Assembly (NCBI GenBank): GCA_902500205.1
Contig: GCA_902500205.1_4868.1
Length of the DNA: 64,000 nt
Strand: one strand, 5' to 3'
Origin: Escherichia coli
GTDB lineage: Bacteria > Pseudomonadota > Gammaproteobacteria > Enterobacterales > Enterobacteriaceae
In this document: one piece after another, positions 493 to 13,088 of the stretch
How positions within the stretch are numbered: the first letter of the stretch is position 1
How the letters are laid out: each line of letters begins with the position of its first letter
Translations under genes and position numbers: made by a program
The notes under the pieces: model-generated
Database searches by the model: none
The model's input: only the letters and a program-made list of their open reading frames with translations
Told to the model about the DNA's origin: nothing

Positions 493-1041
493 ATGGCAGT
501 TATCTCTGCAAAAGACCAACTCGTCGCGCTGTTTAATGCTGCAAACAGCGGGCTGTCCAGTCCGTTAACTTCTGCTGACGTTACATTCGGCGCTGTTGCT
601 GACTATTCACCAGCTGATTCTGGAGACACTCGCAACTCCAAACTTACCATCACCGCCACTGCGGAATCCGCTAACTTTACTGGCGAGAAAGAGCTGCATT
701 ATACCCGTCTCAATTCATTGAACATCATCGGTGCGAAAGCAGTGACCGCTGACCAGGCAGAATGGGATACCGATGATGAAGTGCTTGCTTTTGTCAACGC
801 AGATCTAATTGCCGCCGGTAAAACGGAAGATGCGTTTGCATTGTCTGAACTCACCATTACACGCGAGGACGGCAGCAGTGGTGAGAAAATCATCACTGTT
901 AAGGTGAAAGAAGGCCACATTAAATACCAACCTGCCAGCCTTGCTGTTTATACAGTAACGCAGCCAATCGTTAAAACCGACCTGAGCACCACCAATGGTG
1001 AACTGGACGGATTCGACGGCAAAGGTCACGCTGTCATGTAA
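493..1041 (+). CDS. Hypothetical protein (182 aa), possibly virion-associated
   Basis: ATG preceded by GAGGAAACA RBS-like sequence; Thr/Ser/Ala-rich product; followed by a strong terminator. Confidence 0.6.
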   Translation: MAVISAKDQLVALFNAANSGLSSPLTSADVTFGAVADYSPADSGDTRNSKLTITATAESANFTGEKELHYTRLNSLNIIGAKAVTADQAEWDTDDEVLAFVNADLIAAGKTEDAFALSELTITREDGSSGEKIITVKVKEGHIKYQPASLAVYTVTQPIVKTDLSTTNGELDGFDGKGHAVM

Positions 1042-1080: not shown

Positions 1081-1118
1081 CCTACCTCCCTTCGGGGAGG
1101 TAGGGCCTTTATTTTCTT
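1081..1118. terminator. Bidirectional rho-independent terminator between convergent genes
   Basis: Hairpin cctacctccc-ttcg-gggaggtagg with T-rich tracts on both sides; ends the minus-strand structural operon and the plus-strand 182-aa gene. Confidence 0.75.
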
Positions 1119-1121
1119 TGC

Positions 1122-1793
1122 TTACATGCCGAGTGATTCGGACAATGTTTTTAAACCGGTGTAATCGCGCTTTTCAGCTAACTCACGGATTTGGCGTTTG
1201 TTATCTGCCATTGCTGAGTGCAACACCTGGTCGCGTGCAACAATAGCGCCCAACAACGCTTTACATTGGTCTACTGTAAACGGACTGTGCTTAGTATTCA
1301 GCGTATCGAGCCAGTATTCTGGTGCGGTATCTGCCTGAATGTATTGACCGAGGATGGTACGCGACGATTCATCGGCTTGAAAGTGACTACCTTCAAACTC
1401 GATATAACCATGACGCACATCTTCGTAGCGATGGTCAAGTTCCAACAGCATCTTCTGCACGTCTTCGTAAATGTAACGTGCGGTAGATTTCAGATTCCCG
1501 CGAATTTCGTCGAGGTCAATCTCCAGCACATTAGCAATAAACTCTTTCGTGCGTTTCAATGTGAAGTTAGCTTCAATCTCCGACATCTCATACAGCTTCA
1601 TGCGTGCCAGGGCTTCTTTATCAGACATCCCTTCGATGAGATGGTAATGGAGTAATGCACAAAATCCGGTACGACCCTGATCCTGCGCACCGATTCGTTC
1701 CATGAAATTGCCGTGACGATCAATCGGCAAATCACGCTGGAAATAACGGGCGCGGATCTCTTCGTTCGTTAAGCTTTTGTCAGTAACAGACAT
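1122..1793 (-). CDS. Hypothetical protein (223 aa), last gene of the radical SAM cluster operon
   Basis: ORF track; co-oriented with and overlapping the upstream gene; no motif recognised. Confidence 0.55.
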   Translation of the reverse strand: MSVTDKSLTNEEIRARYFQRDLPIDRHGNFMERIGAQDQGRTGFCALLHYHLIEGMSDKEALARMKLYEMSEIEANFTLKRTKEFIANVLEIDLDEIRGNLKSTARYIYEDVQKMLLELDHRYEDVRHGYIEFEGSHFQADESSRTILGQYIQADTAPEYWLDTLNTKHSPFTVDQCKALLGAIVARDQVLHSAMADNKRQIRELAEKRDYTGLKTLSESLGM

Positions 1794-2335
1794 TCGTCCT
1801 CCTCAATCAGGCCAAGTTCTAACAACAAACCGAAGTCCAGCATCTGGAAGTCCTGATCGAGGTTACCGGCCCACAACAGAGAAATGTTGTGTTGCTCTTC
1901 TTCTTCCAACTGCGGGAGCAGGTGTTCTTCGAAGATTTGACGTTCTGTGTAATAAGCGTCAACCGGGTTATTGGAGCGTAAGTTACGAATACGCATCCGC
2001 GGGAATGACAAGCCCAATGCCACTAAACTTTCAGGACTGGCTTCATCAATAGAGTGACGTAGCAGTTCGATTTTGTGGCGTGGGTATGCAAGCAGTCGCT
2101 TCTCAAAGCCAGGGTTGCGCTTTTCGATTTCCGCGACAGACTCGTGTCCTTTCTCAACGCAGTAGACCGGGATCATCACATTCAGCCCGTATTTAATCAA
2201 CAGGCTTTGGATTTCATCAGTGAAGTCTTCCCCTGCCACAATTGCGTGCACATTGTACAGCTTGCTTTTGCGCAGGAAGCGATCGACCAAGTGCAGTTTA
2301 CGCTTCGTAAAATTGTGAATCAGTATTGACTTCAT
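1769..2335 (-). CDS. Hypothetical protein (about 189 aa), cluster-associated
   Basis: ORF track 1769..2413; start moved to internal Met (MKSILIHNF) which has a GGAG RBS about 7 nt upstream by my reading; no motif recognised. Confidence 0.5.
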   Translation of the reverse strand: MKSILIHNFTKRKLHLVDRFLRKSKLYNVHAIVAGEDFTDEIQSLLIKYGLNVMIPVYCVEKGHESVAEIEKRNPGFEKRLLAYPRHKIELLRHSIDEASPESLVALGLSFPRMRIRNLRSNNPVDAYYTERQIFEEHLLPQLEEEEQHNISLLWAGNLDQDFQMLDFGLLLELGLIEEDECLLLTKA

Positions 2336-3626
2336 TCTGGGCTCCGTTTTGTAATTTTTCTGCTTCAGCACGTTGGCGTACACAACGTGAACAATAGCAC
2401 ATGGATTTATCATGCAAATCTGATGCGCGGGTCGTACCAGTTTTCTGATACCAATATTCCGCCGCCATCAGCTTCGCAGTAGTCCAACCACACTGACGAC
2501 GTTCGGCGTGATACGCTTTACGGTCTTCCAGTGTACCTTCACCGTTTTCGTACGATGCTGCTGCGCAGCTACCGCAACTGTGTTTCATCGGACACCCTAA
2601 ACAGGTTTCTGGGTAGTTGGTGTACTGCGTTTGAATCTCTTCTAACAGCTTACCACCGTCCAGGCTCACAAACTCACGACCGACCAGTTCTGCTACAGCA
2701 GAACGGGAAGTTACCGTGGACATGAAACGGTTACAACCGTAAATCTTGCGATCAAAGCCGAGACAGGTCATGTGCGTCAACGTACCGCAGTACGGTTTCA
2801 GGCGTTCTGGGTCGAGACGAACAGAGTCGTCATGTAAGAGTTTGTCACGCCAATCCGGGTCCCAAGTTGCCATAAAGTTCAGGCCATCCGGGATGATGTG
2901 TGTAATCGTGTTACGCGGGTTGGTGTGCAGACCCTTCTCAATCCAGTAGTCCATCACGTCCATCATCTGGTTCGCGATATCCAACGCCATATGGCGCGGC
3001 AGGATATCTTCGTACGTTACGTTACCAGAGATGGTACCACCGCCGGACATGTCAATTAACGATTTCATGCTGGCGGCATAGTGCGGCAATGTATCGATCG
3101 TAAACGTCGCCTTTACGCCCAGCTCAGCGATGCCAACGCTCTTCAGGTAATTGTAACCGCGTACCGCAGCTTCGTACGACCCTTCACGCGTCGTGGTAAA
3201 GATACGATATTTGTCATGGACTTCAGGTAAACCATCGATGGAGACCCCAATAGACAGTTTGTCTTTCCAGCGCTCGATAATTTCTTTGTTCAGCGGTCGG
3301 TCCAGAAGTGTACCGTTCGTGGAGATACTGAACATATACGGGCGATTGTGTTCTGCGCATAACTTCTCTGCGGTTTCAAAGGCCGCCAAAAGAAGTTTAG
3401 GCTGCATGAACGGCTCACCACCGATGATATCGATGATGACTTCAACGTTCGGGATATCTTTATCGCGCTCGAAACAAGCGTGGATAAAATCAATCACGTC
3501 TGCTACTTTGTTGTTACGCGGATATTTACGCTCGTAGCAGTATTCGCAGTCCAGGTTACATGACAAGTTAGTCACAACCTGATACGTGCGTGGTGTGTAC
3601 TGGATTTGCTGTTCGCTATTACTCAT
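2298..3626 (-). CDS. Radical SAM enzyme with SPASM-type C-terminal domain (442 aa)
   Basis: N-terminal CNLDCEYC (CxxxCxxC radical SAM cluster motif); C-terminal Cys-rich segment CLGCPMKHSCGSCAA and CYCSRC typical of SPASM auxiliary cluster domains; its start overlaps the stop of the upstream radical SAM gene. Confidence 0.85.
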   Translation of the reverse strand: MSNSEQQIQYTPRTYQVVTNLSCNLDCEYCYERKYPRNNKVADVIDFIHACFERDKDIPNVEVIIDIIGGEPFMQPKLLLAAFETAEKLCAEHNRPYMFSISTNGTLLDRPLNKEIIERWKDKLSIGVSIDGLPEVHDKYRIFTTTREGSYEAAVRGYNYLKSVGIAELGVKATFTIDTLPHYAASMKSLIDMSGGGTISGNVTYEDILPRHMALDIANQMMDVMDYWIEKGLHTNPRNTITHIIPDGLNFMATWDPDWRDKLLHDDSVRLDPERLKPYCGTLTHMTCLGFDRKIYGCNRFMSTVTSRSAVAELVGREFVSLDGGKLLEEIQTQYTNYPETCLGCPMKHSCGSCAAASYENGEGTLEDRKAYHAERRQCGWTTAKLMAAEYWYQKTGTTRASDLHDKSMCYCSRCVRQRAEAEKLQNGAQNEVNTDSQFYEA

Positions 3627-4533
3627 TGTTCGCCGCCCGTTTACGCTTAGCAGAAATTACACGGTTGATGTAGTTATACGCATCAACGCCGATAGAACGC
3701 GCCAGGCGATTACAGCCGACTTCCAATATCTCTGGCGCGTTCTGAATTTGCTCCTGCGTACCGTCGGCGTTAAGCCACAGCACTTCACTGCACGTGTTGC
3801 ACTCGGTATCGAACATTTTACTGATCGCAAGCCCACATTCAGAATCGTTCTGCATGTTAAGGCGTTCGATATTGTCGAGTATTTTCCAATACCCGTACAT
3901 GAAGTTCATGACGTGGTCTGGCGATAACGGTTTCGGCATCATCGCATCAAACAGCAACGACATACCACCTGGACGGTAATGATAGATTGCTCGGTGCAGC
4001 TCGATGAAATCTTCGTACCAGCGTTTATCGCCTAACTGGTCACGCGTCATCACACCCCAGGTGTAATAGTTGTCCAGCTCGTACAGCACTTCCAGCGCTT
4101 CGTGATTACCACCGTTTACAAAGTTCATAAACGGACGTTCCGACTTCTTGTAGCCGTCAATGGACACAAAGATAAGGTCGAACTGTTTCAGCAACGGCAG
4201 ATGTGATTTACGCATCTTTAAACCGTTGGTGTACATGTGATGACGGAGGTTCGGATGAGACTCCTTCAACTCATTCACGAAGTCTTCAATCTTGCGCTGC
4301 GCTAACAGCGGCTCACCGCCCGTCCAATGAATCTCACCGATATCCGGATTCTTCTCTAAAATCGAGAGAATCTCTTCACGTTGAAACTCACGAGAAGTAT
4401 CTTCTCTATCCATGTAATAAGCCCCTCCACAGAAGCTACAGTCTAAGTTACACTTAGAAGTTGCGACAACCGACAGAATTGACGGTTTGTCGTACAGTTC
4501 AGACGAGATCCTGGATTCTACTTGATCTGTCAT
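3619..4533 (-). CDS. Radical SAM enzyme (about 304 aa), second maturase-like protein
   Basis: CNLDCSFCGG radical SAM motif; C-terminal Cys motifs (ECG...ECNTC...GC) suggest a partial or twitch-like auxiliary domain. Track start 4569 is probably a non-ATG codon; internal ATG (MTDQVES) with GGAG RBS preferred. Confidence 0.8.
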   Translation of the reverse strand: MTDQVESRISSELYDKPSILSVVATSKCNLDCSFCGGAYYMDREDTSREFQREEILSILEKNPDIGEIHWTGGEPLLAQRKIEDFVNELKESHPNLRHHMYTNGLKMRKSHLPLLKQFDLIFVSIDGYKKSERPFMNFVNGGNHEALEVLYELDNYYTWGVMTRDQLGDKRWYEDFIELHRAIYHYRPGGMSLLFDAMMPKPLSPDHVMNFMYGYWKILDNIERLNMQNDSECGLAISKMFDTECNTCSEVLWLNADGTQEQIQNAPEILEVGCNRLARSIGVDAYNYINRVISAKRKRAANNE

Positions 4534-4555
4534 TGCAGGTTGCTCCAGTATATTT

Positions 4556-5443
4556 TTAAATATAATCAATGGCGAATAAAGGATCTTCGTCTACATTAGC
4601 GCCAGGCACCAGTAACATCGGGTCGTGATAGGCAGCTAAAATTTTGTTCAGGTCGGCATGTCTTTCGTTCAAGCGTTTCAAATCGGCCAACGTAACCGAA
4701 CGACTACGAATCTCAGAAACAGCTTCTGCTTCTTCTTTCGTTAAATCCACCTTCGTTAAGAGGAAGCTTACCAGCTTACTCAAATCCGCTTCTGTCGCCG
4801 GGTAATCCCCATATCGGGTTTGAACCAGGTGTTGCATCCACGGCTTACGAATACGTTTGGTGATTTCGAAATCGTCAGTCAGCGCATACCAGACAGAACG
4901 CTTTTTATCCCACACGAACTTATAGCTATACGCCATCATGTCCGCTAAACGGGTGATGCCGAGTTCTTTATATCCCTCGATATCGATGTACGGTTCGGTG
5001 TCGAAATACGTTTCCGTATCGGCAGGTACCAGTACAAAGTAGTAAGGGAATGAGCCCAGATAGTCCGGACTCCACCAACGGCGCGCCATCGGTTTTGCTT
5101 CGAGTTCGTCAAACGGTGTAAACATCAGTTCTAAATCGACACTGTTGTTCAAAATCCCTTCACTGAAGAAATACTTACCGTCGACTAACACGCCACGAGA
5201 GTTACCATCGCCGTTAAAGATAACGATGGCCTCTGCAACCATATCACGGATCTTAAACGTATTTTCTACGGTGTAGTTCTTCTTGTCGGTCAAGAAGCGA
5301 CCACGAACCTTTGGCCACTCACCAGGAATCTGTGCAATCAGTCTGACTTTGTCAGCGAGGTGTGCACGCACCGAATCTGGGGAAGATAGATGCAGCGGGT
5401 GGTTGAATGTGGTTTTATACGCAAGATGCAAATCGTTTTTCAT
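4556..5443 (-). CDS. Hypothetical protein (295 aa) between the precursor genes and the radical SAM genes
   Basis: ORF track; GGAG RBS upstream; no recognisable motif; position suggests an accessory or recognition role. Confidence 0.55.
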   Translation of the reverse strand: MKNDLHLAYKTTFNHPLHLSSPDSVRAHLADKVRLIAQIPGEWPKVRGRFLTDKKNYTVENTFKIRDMVAEAIVIFNGDGNSRGVLVDGKYFFSEGILNNSVDLELMFTPFDELEAKPMARRWWSPDYLGSFPYYFVLVPADTETYFDTEPYIDIEGYKELGITRLADMMAYSYKFVWDKKRSVWYALTDDFEITKRIRKPWMQHLVQTRYGDYPATEADLSKLVSFLLTKVDLTKEEAEAVSEIRSRSVTLADLKRLNERHADLNKILAAYHDPMLLVPGANVDEDPLFAIDYI

Positions 5444-5465
5444 TTAATACTCCGAACGTTTTCTG

Positions 5466-5672
5466 TTATCGATTCCCCGCTCCACGGCTACAGCTTCCGC
5501 TGCAGGACCAGCTACACCCACCATTACAGTTATAGTGAGAAAGCGGTAAGCCAGCCAGGTTATTTGTGGTCGACACGGTGCCCTGGTTAGCGATATAGTT
5601 GTTTGCCTGTGCGGTTGTAATGTAACCTTCTGCCGTAACGAGACGGTTTCGAATAGTCTTGAGACTGATCAC
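5466..5672 (-). CDS. Cys-rich precursor-like peptide A (68 aa)
   Basis: GTG start with GGAGG RBS by my reading; N-terminus MISLKTIRNRL resembles paralogs B and C; short C-terminal core SHYNCNGGCSWSCSGSCS. Confidence 0.6.
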   Translation of the reverse strand: MISLKTIRNRLVTAEGYITTAQANNYIANQGTVSTTNNLAGLPLSHYNCNGGCSWSCSGSCSRGAGNR

Positions 5673-5687
5673 ATAAGCCTCCGTCGG

Positions 5688-6092
5688 TTAGGAGTTAGGA
5701 CCTGAACAACCACCAGAGCACGCACCTGAGCAGTTTGCGGAGCAGGATTTACCACAACCCCCAGAACAGCTGCCTGTGCACGTGCCGCTACAACCACCAG
5801 AGCACGAAGAGCTACAGCCCGTGCAGCTGCTGCTACAGCCTGATACACAGTTTGCCGAACAAGTCGACCCACAACCGCCCGTAGCAGACCCAGTACATCC
5901 GCCAGAACAACTCGAGCAACTAAAAGAGCATGTGCCACCACAGTCATAGTGCGAACGGCCTTGACCTGCGAACAAGTCGGCGTTATTCGTAGCTTTATTG
6001 CGAATGTAGTTTTGCACATTCGTGGTGTTCTTTAAAGCGTTTGCATCGATCGCGTTTAATCGGTTATTCAGTTCTTTTAATCCAATTGCCAT
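5688..6092 (-). CDS. Cys-rich precursor-like peptide B (134 aa)
   Basis: Leader-like N-terminus MAIGLKELNNRL; junction motif SHYDCGGTCSFSC followed by about 20 Cys in C-x3-C repeats with S/G/T/A/N spacers. Confidence 0.7.
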   Translation of the reverse strand: MAIGLKELNNRLNAIDANALKNTTNVQNYIRNKATNNADLFAGQGRSHYDCGGTCSFSCSSCSGGCTGSATGGCGSTCSANCVSGCSSSCTGCSSSCSGGCSGTCTGSCSGGCGKSCSANCSGACSGGCSGPNS

Positions 6093-6360
6093 TTAATCCC
6101 CCTTAGCGACCTGAACAGCCACCGGAGCAGGCTCCGGAACAACTGGAAGAACATGAGCCACCGCAACCACCTGTGCAGTTACCGGTACAGCTACTACTGC
6201 AACCACCAGAACAACCAGAGCAACCAGAACAGTTACCGCCACACGTCGAAGAACAGCTACCGATACAAGAAGCAGAACAGCTTCCTGAACAGCTCGAACA
6301 GCCATGCGAGCAACCGTTAGAGCACGTCCAAGAACATGTCCCGCCGCAATCTAGCTGTGT
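5700..6360. repeat. Low-complexity codon repeat tracts (Cys/Ser/Gly codons) inside precursor genes B and C
   Basis: Reiterated short codon units create long spurious ORFs on the opposite strand and in other frames (track ORFs 5669..6019, 6093..6305, 6173..6508). Confidence 0.6.
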
Positions 6361-6495
6361 TTTCGTCCAACCCCCAAATCGGTCTGCCGCGTTATGGGCT
6401 TTAGAGGCCACTTGCGCGTCGATACGGGGGCCTGTCGCCATGTTAGCTTCGACTATCTGGACGCGGTTTCTGACGTCTTTAATAGATATCGCCAT
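6103..6495 (-). CDS. Cys-rich precursor-like peptide C (130 aa)
   Basis: Leader-like N-terminus MAISIKDVRNRV; junction motif DCGGTCSWTC followed by about 21 Cys in C-x3-C repeats. Confidence 0.7.
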   Translation of the reverse strand: MAISIKDVRNRVQIVEANMATGPRIDAQVASKAHNAADRFGGWTKTQLDCGGTCSWTCSNGCSHGCSSCSGSCSASCIGSCSSTCGGNCSGCSGCSGGCSSSCTGNCTGGCGGSCSSSCSGACSGGCSGR

Positions 6496-6516
6496 TACGC
6501 TTCCTTAAAAAGTAGA

Positions 6517-6553
6517 ACGAGCGGACTATGTCCATAAACATAGTCCGGCTCGT
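6517..6553 (-). terminator. Strong hairpin (terminator or attenuator or RNA processing site) between the fibre operon and the precursor genes
   Basis: About 14-bp stem with one bulge (acgagcggactatg / catagtccggctcgt), followed on the transcript by a U-rich stretch and then the RBS of precursor C. Confidence 0.45.
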
Positions 6554-6560
6554 AAACAAG

Positions 6561-7763
6561 TTACTTAGTACCCGCTTCAGCTTGAACATCGTCGCGCGAG
6601 GTGAGGTTGTTGTTAACGTGAACAGCAGCCTGCACAACACCGCCATACTGTTTATGGAGGTAATTCGGGTGTGGGTTATCCGCAGCCGCATGGTTCGCCA
6701 GATTCTGGTTTGCCTGCGAAATTGCGTTGGTGTTGTTTACAACCTGAGTTTTAAGACTGTTGATTTGTCCTTGCAGGTTATCAATTTGCTGTTGGAAGTC
6801 TTTGCCCTGATTCTCAAGATCCGTGACACGCTGATTTGTTTCATTCAGCGCAGACTGAAGATCGTTAACCTTCTTCTGTAATTGCAACACCAGAGAATTA
6901 AGGTTAGCTAATGCTAACGACATTTTCTGGTAATTTTGAGCAACCACGTTAAGCTGGTCGTTCCACGCGGCTAACGAAGCCACAATTGCATCGATGCGTT
7001 GCCCCAACGCTGTGTCTGCTGCTCTTAAGTCGCCGATATCTTTGATAGTGGCGTCAATGGCAGTCTGTACACTTTGAATCAGAGCACGAATCTCCGTCTC
7101 CGTCAGGCCATTAACCTGATGAATGTCGAGATTGTGTACGTTACCTTCGGCGTTGATGTGGGTATTTAAGGCGTCGAGGAAGTCGTTTTTCAGACCACCC
7201 AGAATACCTTTAATTTCTTCCAGCTGTACTGCAGAGCCGGAGTTAATCGCATCTTTAATCCCCGCGAGTACGGTAATGATATACTCAAAACCGTAGATAT
7301 CGCCAAGGTCTTTATACGTCGGTGCGGACGGGAACGTATCGGGTACGTTCCGAAGATCCTTGAAGTCCACCACGCGGTCTTCAATTTTCAACGACGCAAT
7401 CGCTTGTCGGATGCCTTCGACGTTCGCGGACTGAAAACCACCGACAACTTGCGCAGAGACTTCGATATCAGTAGGAATGGCCGTGTTAGTTACCACCACA
7501 CCCATGACCACTTCGCGGTTCTTGGTCATTTTCTGATATGCAGTATGTGCAAAAATCAGCTCGTAGTCTGTACCGCGTTTGTACGGGTAGACACCTGGTT
7601 TATTCGCAGCCGCCAAGCGGAAGGTATCCGCGTAGAAAGCTCCGTCAGGAAATGCAAAAGCCCGGTTAACTTTACCAGAACCTAACGTAATACGCCGCGT
7701 AACGGCGTTCGACGTTAATGTCCCGGTAAGGTCGAGCGGGTACTGATAAATGATTTCGGCCAT
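6561..7763 (-). CDS. Tail-fibre-like protein (about 400 aa) with coiled-coil region
   Basis: Shares the N-terminal module (..RGTDYEL..) with the three large fibre proteins; central heptad-like Q/N/L-rich segment; C-terminal NPHPNYLH motif. Start moved to internal ATG with GGAG RBS. Confidence 0.65.
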   Translation of the reverse strand: MAEIIYQYPLDLTGTLTSNAVTRRITLGSGKVNRAFAFPDGAFYADTFRLAAANKPGVYPYKRGTDYELIFAHTAYQKMTKNREVVMGVVVTNTAIPTDIEVSAQVVGGFQSANVEGIRQAIASLKIEDRVVDFKDLRNVPDTFPSAPTYKDLGDIYGFEYIITVLAGIKDAINSGSAVQLEEIKGILGGLKNDFLDALNTHINAEGNVHNLDIHQVNGLTETEIRALIQSVQTAIDATIKDIGDLRAADTALGQRIDAIVASLAAWNDQLNVVAQNYQKMSLALANLNSLVLQLQKKVNDLQSALNETNQRVTDLENQGKDFQQQIDNLQGQINSLKTQVVNNTNAISQANQNLANHAAADNPHPNYLHKQYGGVVQAAVHVNNNLTSRDDVQAEAGTK

Positions 7764-7810
7764 TGCCAAACTCCTTTGATTGGGGCTTCCTTGCCCCATA
7801 GCGCTAACTG

Positions 7811-10800
7811 TTAGGTACGGAACATAAGATTGACCTGGATAATATCAGGCTGTTGCCATCCTCTCTCGTTCACCCAATCGTGCGCAATCGTTAACGTAAG
7901 ATCATCGCCATCCCACGCCACGATCGGCGGTGGGAATAAACCCTGAGCGCCCGTGGTAACAACCGGAATTGCACCCGCCACATCCACAAACGTGTAGCTA
8001 CGGCTGTTCAAAACAACTGGTGTGCCGTAGGTCTCTCCCCCCAATGGTAAGATTTGAATCTTACTATCCGAAAGATCGGTGGTGATTGGTAGTCCCCCCG
8101 CGTCCGTGAAAAGCCAAGAGCAAATATGCTGGTTGGCCATCTCAAGCGCTGGGGAACTCAACACAGCAGAGAAAGTAAACGTACATGGCACGCCTGCGGG
8201 CAGAGAGTGCTGTTTGTGATACACGGTATGTGGTGTTGGCATTAGCACTTCTGGATTTTCTTCAATGTTAACATCCTTACCTTCCGCCTCGACGTTGTAT
8301 AAAAATCTATCTACCGTATCCCATGGGGCGATGTTGACATTAAAGGTCGTTTCTACTCCCGGTGTACCTGGGACGACGAATTTACTTTGTATCACCACTA
8401 TCATCATTCCTGAGGTCGGAGAGAAAGCAGGCGTAGGGATACCCACCCACTCCATTCCCAACGATGCCGCTTCACCGTTCTCATCGGCCGTTACCGTCGC
8501 AATTGTTGTAGGATGTTTCCAAAACGCCCCCGACTTGTTTGCCTGAGTAAACGCCGGCAAAGTTTTCAAGCCTTCGAAACGTTTGGAGACCATCGGTTTA
8601 CCGCGACGCTGTGCGTCAGATACGGTATAAAGCAACTGACTATCCAGATAGCCTTTCGTAGCATCGATAGACAAAGGACCCATCGCTTCTTTACGCAATG
8701 GTGCCAGTCTGCCCGTTGCCGCATCCCTTCCCACTTCCACATCATGCTTATTCTCAACCGCCGCATGTTCCAACAGTTGTTTCACCGCCCCCAATCGCTT
8801 AGCATGTTCGACGTTAGTCTCGACGACTCGCGACGAGCCCGTTTTAACATACCCGATATAGAGTTCCGTTTCAGTGTCTGGATGTTGAATCACGTCCATT
8901 ACGTACTTCGGTGTACCATTTTCTACCTTGGCGTGCAGGTAGAATGTCCGGTTCTGATGGTTTGTTGGAAATGCTGCGCTGAGGTCAATATACCACGTAG
9001 GCAGCTTATAAGTGCTCGAGCCGAAACGCAGGTCAACTTCCTCAGTCACATATACCAGCCAACCTTCAGCTGTTTCCACACCAGCAATGACAACCGATTC
9101 AGTCGGGCCACTAAAATTAGGAGCCGCGACAAAATCTCTCGACGACGTTGCGATACCACCACAATAGACGTAGTCGAGAGATGAGTTGTGTAGCATCACC
9201 TGATCACGATGAGCCAGATAAGCTGGGCTGACTGGAGTGTGTGACGGTGCCATACGTCCAACGCCGTGTGGAGCAGAAGAACGCGTCCAGGTACCATTAG
9301 ACAGCGTAAGACCAACAGCGTAGTTAAGCGCACCCAAGTCGCCAATCAGGCGCAAGGTTAACGTGTGTGGAAGATACAACCCGAACTGCGTACCATCTAC
9401 CGACACCAGTGTAGGTTGTCCCGGCCGGCGTGTTTTTCCTCCCGTTATCTCACCCAACGTAGCATAGTTCAAGTCATAGTCGAGGTTGTTATAGAAGTCA
9501 AACAAAGCCAATATCGCTGCGGGGAATGTTACCTGCCCGTTGCTGATTGTTGGTTTCAGTGTAAAGTAGTAGATATCCAACACGTTAACGTTGTTCACAG
9601 TACGCGTACATGCTACTTGTGCTAACGTGAGCGGTGTGGCCGTACCAATGCCGATGAACCAAACGGAGAACAATGCCTTTCCTGCGTTATTTGCGGCAAG
9701 GATAAATTCCGAAGCATAACCATTCGCAGCGCCTGCCGGTGCACCGTCGATGATCATCTGCTTCATCTTATTCCATTCGGCTTGTGACAGCGTCAACCGA
9801 TCGGCATGAATCGTGAAAGTGCCAGAAACGTTGTGGTAAGGGAATGTTTCTGGCCCTGTGCAATACCAGCCGTTTAACTCTGTACCAGGCGACGCCGGTG
9901 TAACAATGTGGCACATCTGCGACAGATTCTCGTACGTGGTAGAATCCACTACACGACGATTGTTAGTTGGTCCATACCCCGCTTTACCTGAGTAAGTGGT
10001 GTTCGGATCAAACTCAACTTCAATTGCCAAACGGGAACGTGGCTGTGACAACCAGATAAGTCTGGAATTCGCTCCCAGAGTCAGCGGATACGCCATACCC
10101 AGCTCGTAGATAGAACCACGACCTTGGTTTAACGTTACCGCACTAAACCTTCTGGCAGTGAAGTTGTAGTCGCACGACAGGTACTCGTACCAACTCACAC
10201 CGTCGTCTAACGTGGTAATCGTGACAATTGGCATTAGGTCACGATCGCCGGCATGTCCTTGCGAAACGATATATTTGTCTTGCGATGTTGCAAAGGTTTG
10301 GTTATTAGCTTGACCTTCGCCCCACTTCCGGCTCGGAATCCCAATCTCAGCACCACCGTTATAACGAACCGCGGTAAGATCAGCCACAATAGGGAATCGA
10401 TCAGCCCCTTCCAGCGTTACCGTCATTGAACTGCAATCAACAACAAAGCTTGACACCCATTGTTTAAAGCTAATCGTCTGCCCTGTGCTGGAGGCAAACC
10501 AGACTGTTGGCGTTAAACCAACACGAAATTTCAGCCCATCAACACCAATCGCGTGATTACACTCAGGACCATGTACAAAGTTGATTGCATTGTTCCACTT
10601 CGCTAACGCGTCTGCGTAGATCTGTGTAACTGGTGCTGGGAGCGCATCGGAAGGTGCACGTTTCTGTCCCTGTCGCAGATAAACGTTTTCACCCGACGTT
10701 AATATCCCGCCTGTTAACGCATCCGCCACAAACGTGTTGCTACCACCCGGATTAAGTTCGTTGAGTGCGATGCTACGCATACTCACGAAATAGTTACCGG

Positions 10801-12994
10801 AGGTAAGCACCGTACGCAACAGGTAGACACGTTCATTACAAACAATCAAATCGTCTGTAGAAGCGTTTGGAGCCCACGGTGCTGTCGTTACTGTGCCCGC
10901 ACCATTACCGTTCTTGTAATCACCCAACACCACTTTAACAACACGATGATGTTTTGCATGGTCAATCGTCCCATCGAAGATGACCAAGTAGTACGCACCG
11001 TCACTGCCTAAGCAGATCATTGCATCTGTACCGGTAATCACAATAGCAACCAGATTCACCCCAGGATACGCCGACATTCCAGCGGGTCGATAACGTACGG
11101 ACGTCTGCTGCATATTTTCCAGCGTATTGCTTGGCGACACATCGGCATAGGCGTAATAGATAGTCCAGTCACCTGGTGGATTCCCGTTAGAACCGTTACG
11201 GAGCGAGTAAACCTTACCAGACTCGTAACGCGCCAAACCTTTCTGCCAGGTTTGGTTTTTGGTATACCCTTCGTAGTTCCCCTGGACTGGTATAGGCAAG
11301 AAGTTATTGTTGCCGTACGATGATCCGCCGACAGTCCATGCGGGCAACAGCGTAGCAATCTTGTCATTCAGTGTGTCAATCTTTTGTTCAAGCAAGAAGC
11401 CCTGACGCGAAGTGACCATCTTATCCGAGGTAGTGTCGATTGCATCCCACAGTTTAGCCAAACCTGTAACAGACGTGGATGCGTACGGCACGTTATCGAG
11501 ATCTGCAATGGTGTGGGTGTGCGTTGTAAGCGCTTTGCCTGATAGCACGGTACGCAATGCGTTAGTAACTGGCTTTTCTAACGGTCCGGTATTGTTCATC
11601 TTCTCAATACCGAAATCTGCCGCGGTTAAGGTCAGATGCATCTGCCCGTTTGAATCTAATACAAACCCTTTACCGTTGACTGTATACGTGTCGTCCACAT
11701 ATCCGTCGAGTTTGTTCTTCAAGTCAGTAACAGCTTTTTGGGAAATCGCTGTGGACGCTGCAGCGGACGCCGAAAGGTTAGTAATCGCAAACAAACCCTG
11801 CACAGTTGTGGTTGCTGCAGGCAGCTCCGCATTCATGTAAAGTTTGTTTGTTTCTTTACCAGAGCCGTAAATCTTCAACGTGTCGCTGGACTTGAAGTAG
11901 GCGTTTGCTGGAAGTATCTTCACCGAGGTCAAGTACATCTTAACCATATCCGGTGTAACAAGATACACGCTATTATACACAGGTGCAAGCACACCCGCAT
12001 CATAATCGCCCCACTTGTCACCTGCTTTACCCGAGTGAACCCAAAGCGTGTTCAGACCAGCACTGAACTCCGTAGCGATGCCCGGTTCGTTGTTATCCTG
12101 GTCAGCTTTTAATACCAGCGGTTTTGTCGAGGTGATGATGAACTTCTCACCCTTCATGCTGATAACGTGACCAGACGTTGTTTGGAACGTAATCGCGTCG
12201 TTATTCAGAACACGCATACGGCCCAGTAAATCACCCAGGGTATTATCCAGAAGCATGTCAACGTGTTTCTGTTGGATGCCACTGGTAGACATTAACGTCA
12301 CTAGCTCTGCCAGGGTACGTCCGAATGCCTTAGTCGCATCTACGGCTTTGCCGAGTACCGGGAGAGCGCCAATGTCACCGCAGGTGTAACCATGTGCATT
12401 TTTAATCAGGTGGTGTTGATACATTTCGTCATCAAACACCTGCTTACCGTTCTGATAAATCAAATCGGTAACTTCGGCAAAAGCCTCATCCAGCTCGTGG
12501 GCGCGCTCTAAAATACCCAGACGGATATCTTCCAACGCCTTTACGATTTCATCGCGAAGAATCGCTTCTTCGAGGTCTTTTGGCGGGTCGATTGGCGAGA
12601 TAATCGGCGGATATTTCATCAGCTCAGACCAATCGCAGTTACGCGGGTCTTTCATATCTGTCTTAACCAGATACTTGCCGATTTCAGAAGCAGGGATGCG
12701 ATACTGTCGACCAACCGACAACAACTCGTATTCTACCTCTGTGGCGTTCAGCAGCATTATGCTGCCGTATATTGCATCGTTCTCAGCCTCGGCTAATTCC
12801 TGGAAGTAATGTCCTAGGAAATAATCGAGACCTTCTATTAACTTGCGTTTGGTTCCGGTTGTTTTATCGGTAACGGTTAACGTTAACCCGATGCGATAGA
12901 ACGGTGCTTCGACGGGAATGACCGCCGAATAACGGTTCGGGTAAGTAGCGGTACTGAGCGTACCGTTAAACTGCGCCGCATCTTCTCTCGGCAT
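7811..12994 (-). CDS. Large tail fibre protein (about 1727 aa)
   Basis: Shared N-terminal module; THTHTIADLDNV and SVTGLAKLW motifs resembling T4-type long-tail-fibre HxH and G-x-A-x-x-A-T repeats; start moved from track 13039 to internal ATG with GGAG RBS. Confidence 0.7.
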   Translation of the reverse strand: MPREDAAQFNGTLSTATYPNRYSAVIPVEAPFYRIGLTLTVTDKTTGTKRKLIEGLDYFLGHYFQELAEAENDAIYGSIMLLNATEVEYELLSVGRQYRIPASEIGKYLVKTDMKDPRNCDWSELMKYPPIISPIDPPKDLEEAILRDEIVKALEDIRLGILERAHELDEAFAEVTDLIYQNGKQVFDDEMYQHHLIKNAHGYTCGDIGALPVLGKAVDATKAFGRTLAELVTLMSTSGIQQKHVDMLLDNTLGDLLGRMRVLNNDAITFQTTSGHVISMKGEKFIITSTKPLVLKADQDNNEPGIATEFSAGLNTLWVHSGKAGDKWGDYDAGVLAPVYNSVYLVTPDMVKMYLTSVKILPANAYFKSSDTLKIYGSGKETNKLYMNAELPAATTTVQGLFAITNLSASAAASTAISQKAVTDLKNKLDGYVDDTYTVNGKGFVLDSNGQMHLTLTAADFGIEKMNNTGPLEKPVTNALRTVLSGKALTTHTHTIADLDNVPYASTSVTGLAKLWDAIDTTSDKMVTSRQGFLLEQKIDTLNDKIATLLPAWTVGGSSYGNNNFLPIPVQGNYEGYTKNQTWQKGLARYESGKVYSLRNGSNGNPPGDWTIYYAYADVSPSNTLENMQQTSVRYRPAGMSAYPGVNLVAIVITGTDAMICLGSDGAYYLVIFDGTIDHAKHHRVVKVVLGDYKNGNGAGTVTTAPWAPNASTDDLIVCNERVYLLRTVLTSGNYFVSMRSIALNELNPGGSNTFVADALTGGILTSGENVYLRQGQKRAPSDALPAPVTQIYADALAKWNNAINFVHGPECNHAIGVDGLKFRVGLTPTVWFASSTGQTISFKQWVSSFVVDCSSMTVTLEGADRFPIVADLTAVRYNGGAEIGIPSRKWGEGQANNQTFATSQDKYIVSQGHAGDRDLMPIVTITTLDDGVSWYEYLSCDYNFTARRFSAVTLNQGRGSIYELGMAYPLTLGANSRLIWLSQPRSRLAIEVEFDPNTTYSGKAGYGPTNNRRVVDSTTYENLSQMCHIVTPASPGTELNGWYCTGPETFPYHNVSGTFTIHADRLTLSQAEWNKMKQMIIDGAPAGAANGYASEFILAANNAGKALFSVWFIGIGTATPLTLAQVACTRTVNNVNVLDIYYFTLKPTISNGQVTFPAAILALFDFYNNLDYDLNYATLGEITGGKTRRPGQPTLVSVDGTQFGLYLPHTLTLRLIGDLGALNYAVGLTLSNGTWTRSSAPHGVGRMAPSHTPVSPAYLAHRDQVMLHNSSLDYVYCGGIATSSRDFVAAPNFSGPTESVVIAGVETAEGWLVYVTEEVDLRFGSSTYKLPTWYIDLSAAFPTNHQNRTFYLHAKVENGTPKYVMDVIQHPDTETELYIGYVKTGSSRVVETNVEHAKRLGAVKQLLEHAAVENKHDVEVGRDAATGRLAPLRKEAMGPLSIDATKGYLDSQLLYTVSDAQRRGKPMVSKRFEGLKTLPAFTQANKSGAFWKHPTTIATVTADENGEAASLGMEWVGIPTPAFSPTSGMMIVVIQSKFVVPGTPGVETTFNVNIAPWDTVDRFLYNVEAEGKDVNIEENPEVLMPTPHTVYHKQHSLPAGVPCTFTFSAVLSSPALEMANQHICSWLFTDAGGLPITTDLSDSKIQILPLGGETYGTPVVLNSRSYTFVDVAGAIPVVTTGAQGLFPPPIVAWDGDDLTLTIAHDWVNERGWQQPDIIQVNLMFRT

Positions 12995-13027
12995 TGCAAA
13001 CACTCCTAATCTGTAATAAAACGGAGA

Positions 13028-13088
13028 CCGCCCTCCCAATAACGGAAGGGCGGTTTACCTACGGACTACCCGCCCGTAGGCAGTCCGT
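13028..13088 (-). terminator. Inter-fibre-gene structured region, candidate partial terminator
   Basis: Two adjacent GC-rich inverted repeats (accgccctcc/ggaagggcggt and cctacgg/ccgtagg, with an alternative acggact/agtccgt pairing), then a U-rich stretch on the minus-strand transcript. Confidence 0.4.

Follow-up and report, generated by a model that had tools for sequence, protein, structure and literature searches.

The closest counterpart, among known protein families, of the genes considered here is the CXXX-repeat system, in which a radical S-adenosylmethionine (SAM) enzyme with a SPASM domain (TIGR04115) stands beside proteins that carry a cysteine at every fourth position (TIGR04114/PF27846); the TIGR04119 domain also belongs to it. 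In bacteria, its true members accompany CXXX peptides, and one of them occurs in the tail module of a siphophage. We found a similar arrangement at positions 1122-6560 of a 64,000-nucleotide stretch (the window) of contig GCA_902500205.1_4868.1, from the Escherichia coli assembly GCA_902500205.1. The region is 98.9% identical to positions 138848-144285 of the Salmonella jumbo phage SPN3US (Seoulvirus), and its gene order is shared by some 60 related phages of Salmonella, Escherichia, Proteus, Erwinia and Cronobacter; the window as a whole derives from an SPN3US-like jumbo phage. Its eight open reading frames (ORFs), all on the minus strand and either overlapping or spaced by at most 65 nt, match SPN3US gp161 to gp166 and, in addition, two genes that lack annotation; the initial annotation, made from the letters alone, had already described eight co-oriented, tightly packed genes, and this proved correct. 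We read this cassette, with a probability of roughly 0.55, as a phage variant of radical SAM CXXX-repeat target maturation that sits in a tail-fibre module and cross-links a fibre-associated structural domain, probably through thioethers. The genes on which this reading depends are the following.

2298..3626, minus strand: gp163-like radical SAM/SPASM enzyme of 442 aa, with CX3CX2C at residues 23-30 and, further on, a SPASM motif of seven Cys
3619..4533, minus strand: gp164-like second radical SAM enzyme of about 304 aa, with an alternative TTG start at 4569
4556..5443, minus strand: gp165-like accessory protein of 295 aa, the conserved third member of the triad
5466..5672, minus strand: short CXXX protein of 68 aa with a GTG start, the junction motif and five Cys; minimal candidate substrate
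5688..6092, minus strand: CXXX-repeat protein of 134 aa with 20 Cys; SPN3US 'gp166' is annotated over this ORF in a different frame
6103..6495, minus strand: CXXX-repeat protein of 130 aa with 21 Cys, unannotated in SPN3US

Both enzymes are matched by the Pfam model Radical_SAM (PF04055; 55.6 and 58.6 bits against a cut-off of 29.5; E 1e-15 and 1e-14), and their cluster motifs read CNLDCEYC and CNLDCSFC. The Pfam SPASM model (PF13186) gave no match to gp163 at E<=0.1. The protein does follow the SPASM pattern (C…GC, CX2CX5CX2-3C, C), and the seven residues concerned (C280, C298, C342, C345, C351, C354 and C379) show no variation among 16 homologues, the most distant of which has 32% identity. 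The prediction of two radical SAM enzymes with CNLDCxxC motifs, one of them of SPASM type, therefore held in a check with profile hidden Markov models, the SPASM part through invariant cysteines and not through PF13186. The gp164-like enzyme, which has a short C-terminal Cys motif (two invariant cysteines and one that is mostly conserved), is always found paired with a gp163-like one.

The best NCBIfam match of gp163 is TIGR04115, 'radical SAM peptide maturase, CXXX-repeat target family' (125.6 bits; cut-off 350), and the second is PapB (NF047865; 113.6 bits; cut-off 340). For calibration, true TIGR04115 members score 389-586 bits, while gp163 and its closest relatives reach 125-157 bits, level with their PapB scores. 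Because these values lie so far below those of true members, we consider gp163 a distinct subfamily and not a member of TIGR04115. Enzymes of that family from a Planctomycete, Tissierella and Lachnospiraceae scored 392-586 bits, and the first two are fused to the TIGR04119 (CXXX_matur) domain. This domain is present in the compared loci L081 and L096 but had no match in nine window proteins; a second radical SAM enzyme and gp165 stand in its place. From these family relationships, gp163 is predicted to be a cross-link-forming maturase.

Further systems resemble the locus in part. PapB, the maturase of the ranthipeptide freyrasin, matches gp163 over nearly its full length. The PapB substrate repeat is C-X3-D, which likewise provides a cysteine every few residues. 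However, the cores of the window's Cys-repeat proteins contain no Asp or Glu acceptors, so that any cross-link in them must use another residue. The SCIFF maturase CteB (TIGR03974) is the nearest solved structure by sequence (5wgg, E 3e-10; anSME next) and has a SPASM domain with two auxiliary clusters, but gp163 reaches 53.9 bits with TIGR03974 against a cut-off of 425. It also has no space for an N-terminal recognition element (RRE) of the type found with peptides that are made by the ribosome and modified after translation (RiPPs), since its CX3CX2C motif begins at residue 23. In addition, the window's candidate substrates (68-134 aa, 5-21 Cys) are 2-3 times longer than SCIFF peptides, which have about 45 aa and six Cys. 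The HxsB/HxsC pair of His-Xaa-Ser loci shares the adjacent long SPASM and short radical SAM enzymes (75 bits between gp163 and HxsB, 45 bits between gp164 and HxsC), but neither score comes near its cut-off, and the substrate has another repeat.

Covalent or metal-mediated stiffening of phage proteins that assemble in the cytoplasm is familiar from the isopeptide bonds of the HK97 capsid and from the iron-binding His-x-His needle of T4 gp37. The reinforcement of virion proteins that we propose is comparable, but those examples are autocatalytic or metal-based and none has a dedicated radical SAM enzyme.

The initial annotation had seen in the locus the signature of sactipeptide, ranthipeptide and SCIFF-type clusters. 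One part of this stands, since a radical SAM/SPASM enzyme does accompany Cys-rich substrates and the nearest families are peptide-thioether maturases. The other does not: the locus falls below the cut-off of every curated sactipeptide, ranthipeptide and SCIFF model, and its presumed leader is not of RiPP type. Pfam, NCBIfam and PHROG scans found no RRE, protease or transporter/exporter family in the cluster, as the annotation had remarked for transporter and protease. At the family level, it shows no sign of the general RiPP features (an RRE-recognised leader, cleavage and export).

The candidate substrates are Cys-repeat proteins with a distinctive architecture. In the 130- and 134-aa proteins, cores of 81-84 residues contain 20-21 cysteines (25% Cys), and the spacing from one Cys to the next is exactly three residues in 33 of 39 cases, in agreement with the C-x3-C cores first described. 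The fill consists of Ser, Gly, Thr, Ala or Asn (consensus C-[S/T/G]-[G/S/A]-[S/G/T/N]), and each of the two cores has one Lys or Arg and no acidic residue. In all three small proteins the repeat follows a junction motif, NAxxLxG…Y-CxGxCSWxCS. They belong to PHROG 6085, a family without assigned function, and match the TIGR04114 target-repeat model weakly, at 19.6, 17.1 and 13.7 bits, just short of its cut-off of 20.

These three ORFs are real protein-coding genes under purifying selection in the Cys frame. Compared with their Erwinia phage orthologues (79% identical), the two long ORFs differ at codon positions 1/2/3 in 16/7/61 and 24/17/81 cases, and changed codons are synonymous or non-synonymous at 56:14 and 63:27. 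The Cys columns and the reading frame are invariant across five genera, and a GGAGG-type ribosome site (Shine-Dalgarno) precedes each start. Neither long ORF has an identical sequence in a collection of 15 billion proteins, which does contain the 68-aa ORF (230 contigs) and gp165 (330 contigs).

Existing records place other genes here. SPN3US 'gp166' (JN641803, 143409-143744; window 5669-6019, minus strand) is a Val/Ala/Leu-rich alternative frame over the 134-aa gene, and in Erwinia phage records plus-strand ORFs are called over the Cys repeats. The annotation of SPN3US, a model jumbo phage, is thereby corrected. In two SPN3US-like viral contigs, an additional gp164-like radical SAM gene lies between the two long CXXX genes (L013, 6542-7453; L028, 6543-7454).

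The evidence that connects these proteins to tail fibres comes from relatives in other phages and prophages. Outside the SPN3US group, gp163 has homologues with 31-39% identity, accompanied in most loci by a short radical SAM gene. The triad of gp163-, gp164- and gp165-like genes is found outside SPN3US-like phages in L008, L011, L031 and L033; L077 has the gp163-/gp164-like pair with a gp165-like gene assigned by position only, and L010 has a gp163-like enzyme with further radical SAM ORFs. Beside the enzyme genes, larger proteins with a Cys-repeat C-terminus are encoded in the following loci.

L008, a Deferribacter prophage: fibre-type protein of 302 aa with junction and CXXX C-terminus, just after a GpJ-like tail protein
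L077, a Desulfoluna prophage: fibre-type protein of 257 aa with junction and CXXX C-terminus, containing HxHDxxYYTE repeats
L010, a 213-kb phage contig: fibre-type protein of 568 aa with junction and CXXX C-terminus, adjoining a T4 gp13-like gene
L033, a viral contig: protein of 401 aa with junction and CXXX C-terminus, with collagen-like repeats and PHROG tail-fibre matches
L011, a 140-kb contig: protein of 271 aa with the Pfam Phage_tail_fib N-terminal domain (tail-collar-fibre; 24.2 bits against a cut-off of 23)

The junction of these fibre proteins aligns residue for residue with the ends of the 'leader' regions in the window; only in the 271-aa protein is the CSW junction absent while the Cys repeat is present. 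The 302-, 568- and 401-aa proteins match the window's own family, phrog_6085, with E-values of 1e-12 to 1e-14. What had been taken for a conserved N-terminal leader is thus a junction motif common to tail-fibre proteins. A Firmicute siphophage shows the same association with a true TIGR04115 enzyme (389 bits), encoded with a 226-aa CXXX protein in a tail module of the order TMP, Dit, Tal, collagen fibre, CXXX protein, radical SAM enzyme and holin. Most of the diverged loci examined contain both the enzyme and a CXXX protein, and the linkage to fibre proteins is conserved. Among cultured phages, the paired-enzyme form is found only in SPN3US-like jumbo phages.

The lack of a protease, an exporter and an RRE, the identity of the 'leader' with a fibre junction, and the position of the cassette within tail modules of unrelated phages argue for a structural domain associated with the fibre as the substrate, and against a natural product that is exported. 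We propose the following course of events. The substrates would be the three small proteins, each with a short N-terminal helical region, the junction and a run of C-[ST]-G-x repeats. The junction may be recognised or presented by gp165; neither enzyme has room for an RRE domain. With its radical SAM cluster and two SPASM auxiliary clusters, gp163 would then abstract hydrogen and link the sulfur of a Cys to a carbon in some neighbouring residue along the repeat, a thioether step suggested by homology to CteB and PapB; gp164 would carry out a second radical step of unspecified nature. The product would be a covalently stapled rod, poor in Lys and Arg, that is part of the gp167/gp168 fibre apparatus or docks onto it. 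Thioethers would provide covalent cross-links where disulfides cannot form, namely in the reducing cytoplasm in which virions are assembled.

A bolder version of this proposal, which we hold tentatively and at slightly less than even odds, is that the radical SAM enzymes install thioether-type cross-links in a Cys-every-fourth domain at the phage fibre tip. If so, a virion structural protein would for the first time be a target of radical-SAM post-translational modification, and the module responsible would be common to jumbo myophages, siphophage prophages and gut phages, with SPN3US the sole cultured and genetically tractable carrier of its paired-enzyme form. Until now, radical SAM chemistry of the RiPP type has been regarded as a means of making small peptides for secretion. 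If the proposal is true, enzyme-made covalent staples in host-recognition organelles that are assembled in a reducing cytoplasm would pose a new question in phage structural biology, and the CXXX-repeat family would gain a biological role. For protein engineering, too, a cross-linked rod that is rigid and resists proteases could be of interest. The idea is directly testable, since SPN3US already has amber-mutant genetics and mass-spectrometry datasets. In our searches of the available literature, no account of CXXX-repeat systems or of a link between radical SAM enzymes and phage fibres came up, which agrees with, though it cannot prove, the earlier remark that such an arrangement is undescribed in tailed phages.

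The third member of the triad, gp165, belongs to a rare family (about 50 clusters among 1.84 billion representatives); homologues were detected in L008, L011, L031 and L033 (jackhmmer; BLASTP 1e-9 to the L008 protein) and none was detected in L010. It shows no PqqD-like fold. It may recognise or chaperone the substrate.

Several observations weigh against a cross-linked fibre domain. The predicted fold of gp165 is confident and has no match among known folds. AlphaFold2 gave no usable model of the 130-aa CXXX protein (predicted local distance difference test score 40), and to our knowledge the chemistry of the CXXX family is uncharacterised. The CXXX proteins of SPN3US-like phages are free-standing, without a fibre shaft; of the fibre features they have the junction only, whereas homologous junction and CXXX domains are fused to fibre domains elsewhere. 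A simple 'split gene' origin was considered and found no support, as no similarity could be detected between gp167 and the fused fibre proteins' shafts. The triad of L031, a 279-kb phage contig, adjoins a helicase-like gene and not a tail context. There the gp165-, gp163- and gp164-like genes follow the helicase-like gene, and the sole nearby candidate substrate is a 97-aa ORF (8883-9176) with three Cys that ends in CESCAMGC and may be a reduced or different target.

The published virion proteome does not list the three small proteins. SPN3US particles contain gp160 and gp167-173 and lack gp161-165 (PMC5694885, Supplementary Table 1). The latter absence fits enzymes or helpers that act before assembly. 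The CXXX proteins could not have come to light in that study, because the two long ORFs are unannotated and the cores are almost without trypsin sites. The corrected small ORFs would yield the N-terminal tryptic peptides VQIVEANMATGPR, IDAQVASK, AHNAADR and FGGWTK, together with LNAIDANALK, NTTNVQNYIR and ATNNADLFAGQGR.

The same findings bear on other explanations. The product could be diffusible and RiPP-like, with the N-terminal 50 residues acting as a leader, a cross-linked core, and release of the peptide by host proteases or lysis; it would then be an antimicrobial, a signal or a metal binder. We consider this unlikely, but it has to be taken seriously because enzyme relatives of about 25% identity in Firmicutes, Planctomycetes and an archaeon adjoin, and serve, Cys-rich CXXX peptides of 40-125 aa with a leader or a twin-arginine translocation (TAT) signal. 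The small, free-standing nature of the window's substrates and the lack of reports of them in virions would also fit. However, the cluster has no protease, exporter or immunity gene, the 'leader' recurs as a junction inside fibre proteins, and the cassette is embedded in the tail modules of unrelated phages. Six Planctomycete loci (L081, L082, L088, L090, L093 and L094) have arrays of 75-125 aa CXXX proteins with a twin-arginine-like signal (SRRAFMKK…) beside true TIGR04115 enzymes; a scan of the L081 enzyme showed a fused TIGR04119 domain. They look like arrays of secreted Cys-repeat proteins.

We regard it as rather improbable that the CXXX proteins, although modified by the enzymes, are transient scaffolds or chaperones for the gp167/gp168 fibres that are not kept in the particle. 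The location of the genes within the fibre module, the neighbouring gp161 with its DUF4376 domain and weak matches to tail-protein PHROGs, and the missing CXXX proteins in the virion list would all be explained in this way. In other phages, however, the CXXX domain belongs covalently to the fibre protein itself, an argument for its being kept as a structural domain unless it is removed after assembly.

It is quite improbable that the Cys repeats bind metal or iron-sulfur clusters in unmodified form while the radical SAM enzymes do unrelated work in host metabolism or nucleotide modification. Metals can be chelated by dense arrays of Cys. Annotation of radical SAM genes in SPN3US dates from 2011, and earlier genome papers presumed them to boost host metabolism. 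But the top matches of gp163 are all peptide maturases and not cofactor or nucleoside enzymes, a grouping that the initial annotation had named as the outcome that would speak against it, and the joint occurrence of enzyme and CXXX protein in most of the diverged loci also speaks against this reading. We rejected the host-metabolism reading on account of these family matches. That the small ORFs are non-coding low-complexity DNA, open by chance, a doubt raised at the outset, is effectively refuted: the repeats are open in all three frames and on the opposite strand, and annotators picked other frames, but the excess of synonymous changes (4:1 and about 2.3:1 in the Cys frame), the Cys columns kept across genera, the ribosome sites and the PHROG family speak for genes.

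Around a cross-linking cassette of this composition, the remaining genes of the unit and its neighbours are as follows.

1081..1104, no strand: bidirectional intrinsic terminator, strong, with a 10-bp stem, 7 GC pairs and T-runs on both strands
1122..1793, minus strand: gp161-like protein of 223 aa with DUF4376 (PF14301, 35.4 bits against a cut-off of 25; phrog_8169; weak match to 'tail protein' phrog_2837)
1769..2335, minus strand: gp162-like protein, function not assigned, with an ORF open to 2413 and a probable start at 2335; phrog_7988 aligns from residue 27
6561..7799, minus strand: gp167 homologue, a coiled-coil non-head virion protein directly upstream of the cassette
7811..13039, minus strand: gp168 homologue of 1742 aa, a virion protein and baseplate or tail-fibre candidate that heads the gene block containing the cassette

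At full extent, the eight ORFs span 1122-1793, 1769-2413, 2298-3626, 3619-4569, 4556-5443, 5466-5672, 5688-6092 and 6103-6495, all on the minus strand; gp162 and gp164 likely start later, which shortens them to 1769-2335 and 3619-4533. The terminator sits between the convergent gp160 (plus strand) and gp161 (minus strand) genes and marks the end of the minus-strand unit. No terminator separates the cassette from the preceding virion protein genes gp167 and gp168, and the gp167 homologue is a candidate attachment partner. The gp161-like protein, possibly a fibre-assembly helper, is present only in SPN3US-like loci among those compared, and the gp162-like protein is limited to SPN3US-like phages. 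Both were considered as conserved core members and rejected; DUF4376 does not recur in other loci, and neither protein is in the core.

On the other side of the terminator, window positions 493-1041 (plus strand) encode the homologue of SPN3US gp160, which ranks among the most abundant head proteins (paralog family B) and converges on the cassette. The text of the SPN3US virion paper names 'gp161' in family B, while the table gives gp160.

A different Cys tag was seen in human-gut phage contigs. Tail-like proteins of 192-605 aa end in …CKTSCQVSCQASCQIACQNC…CHNQNCG or CxxSCQVxCQ, with a weak SCIFF match (L036-L048 and L061, e.g. L036 13840-15558; L049 11296-12120; L050 11335-11934; L059 11316-11894). 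Between one and four consecutive radical SAM/SPASM genes adjoin theirs, with three or four in the majority of these contigs.

In the database records of eleven SPFM Salmonella phages, only about 40 short matching pieces and frameshifted proteins were found across the region, which suggests error-rich assemblies. Identical copies of gp163, gp165 and the 68-aa ORF are present in hundreds of contigs of about 240 kb that were deposited as assemblies of Salmonella enterica or E. coli isolates. SPN3US-like phages are thus apparently often co-sequenced with surveillance isolates, through either a carrier state or contamination.

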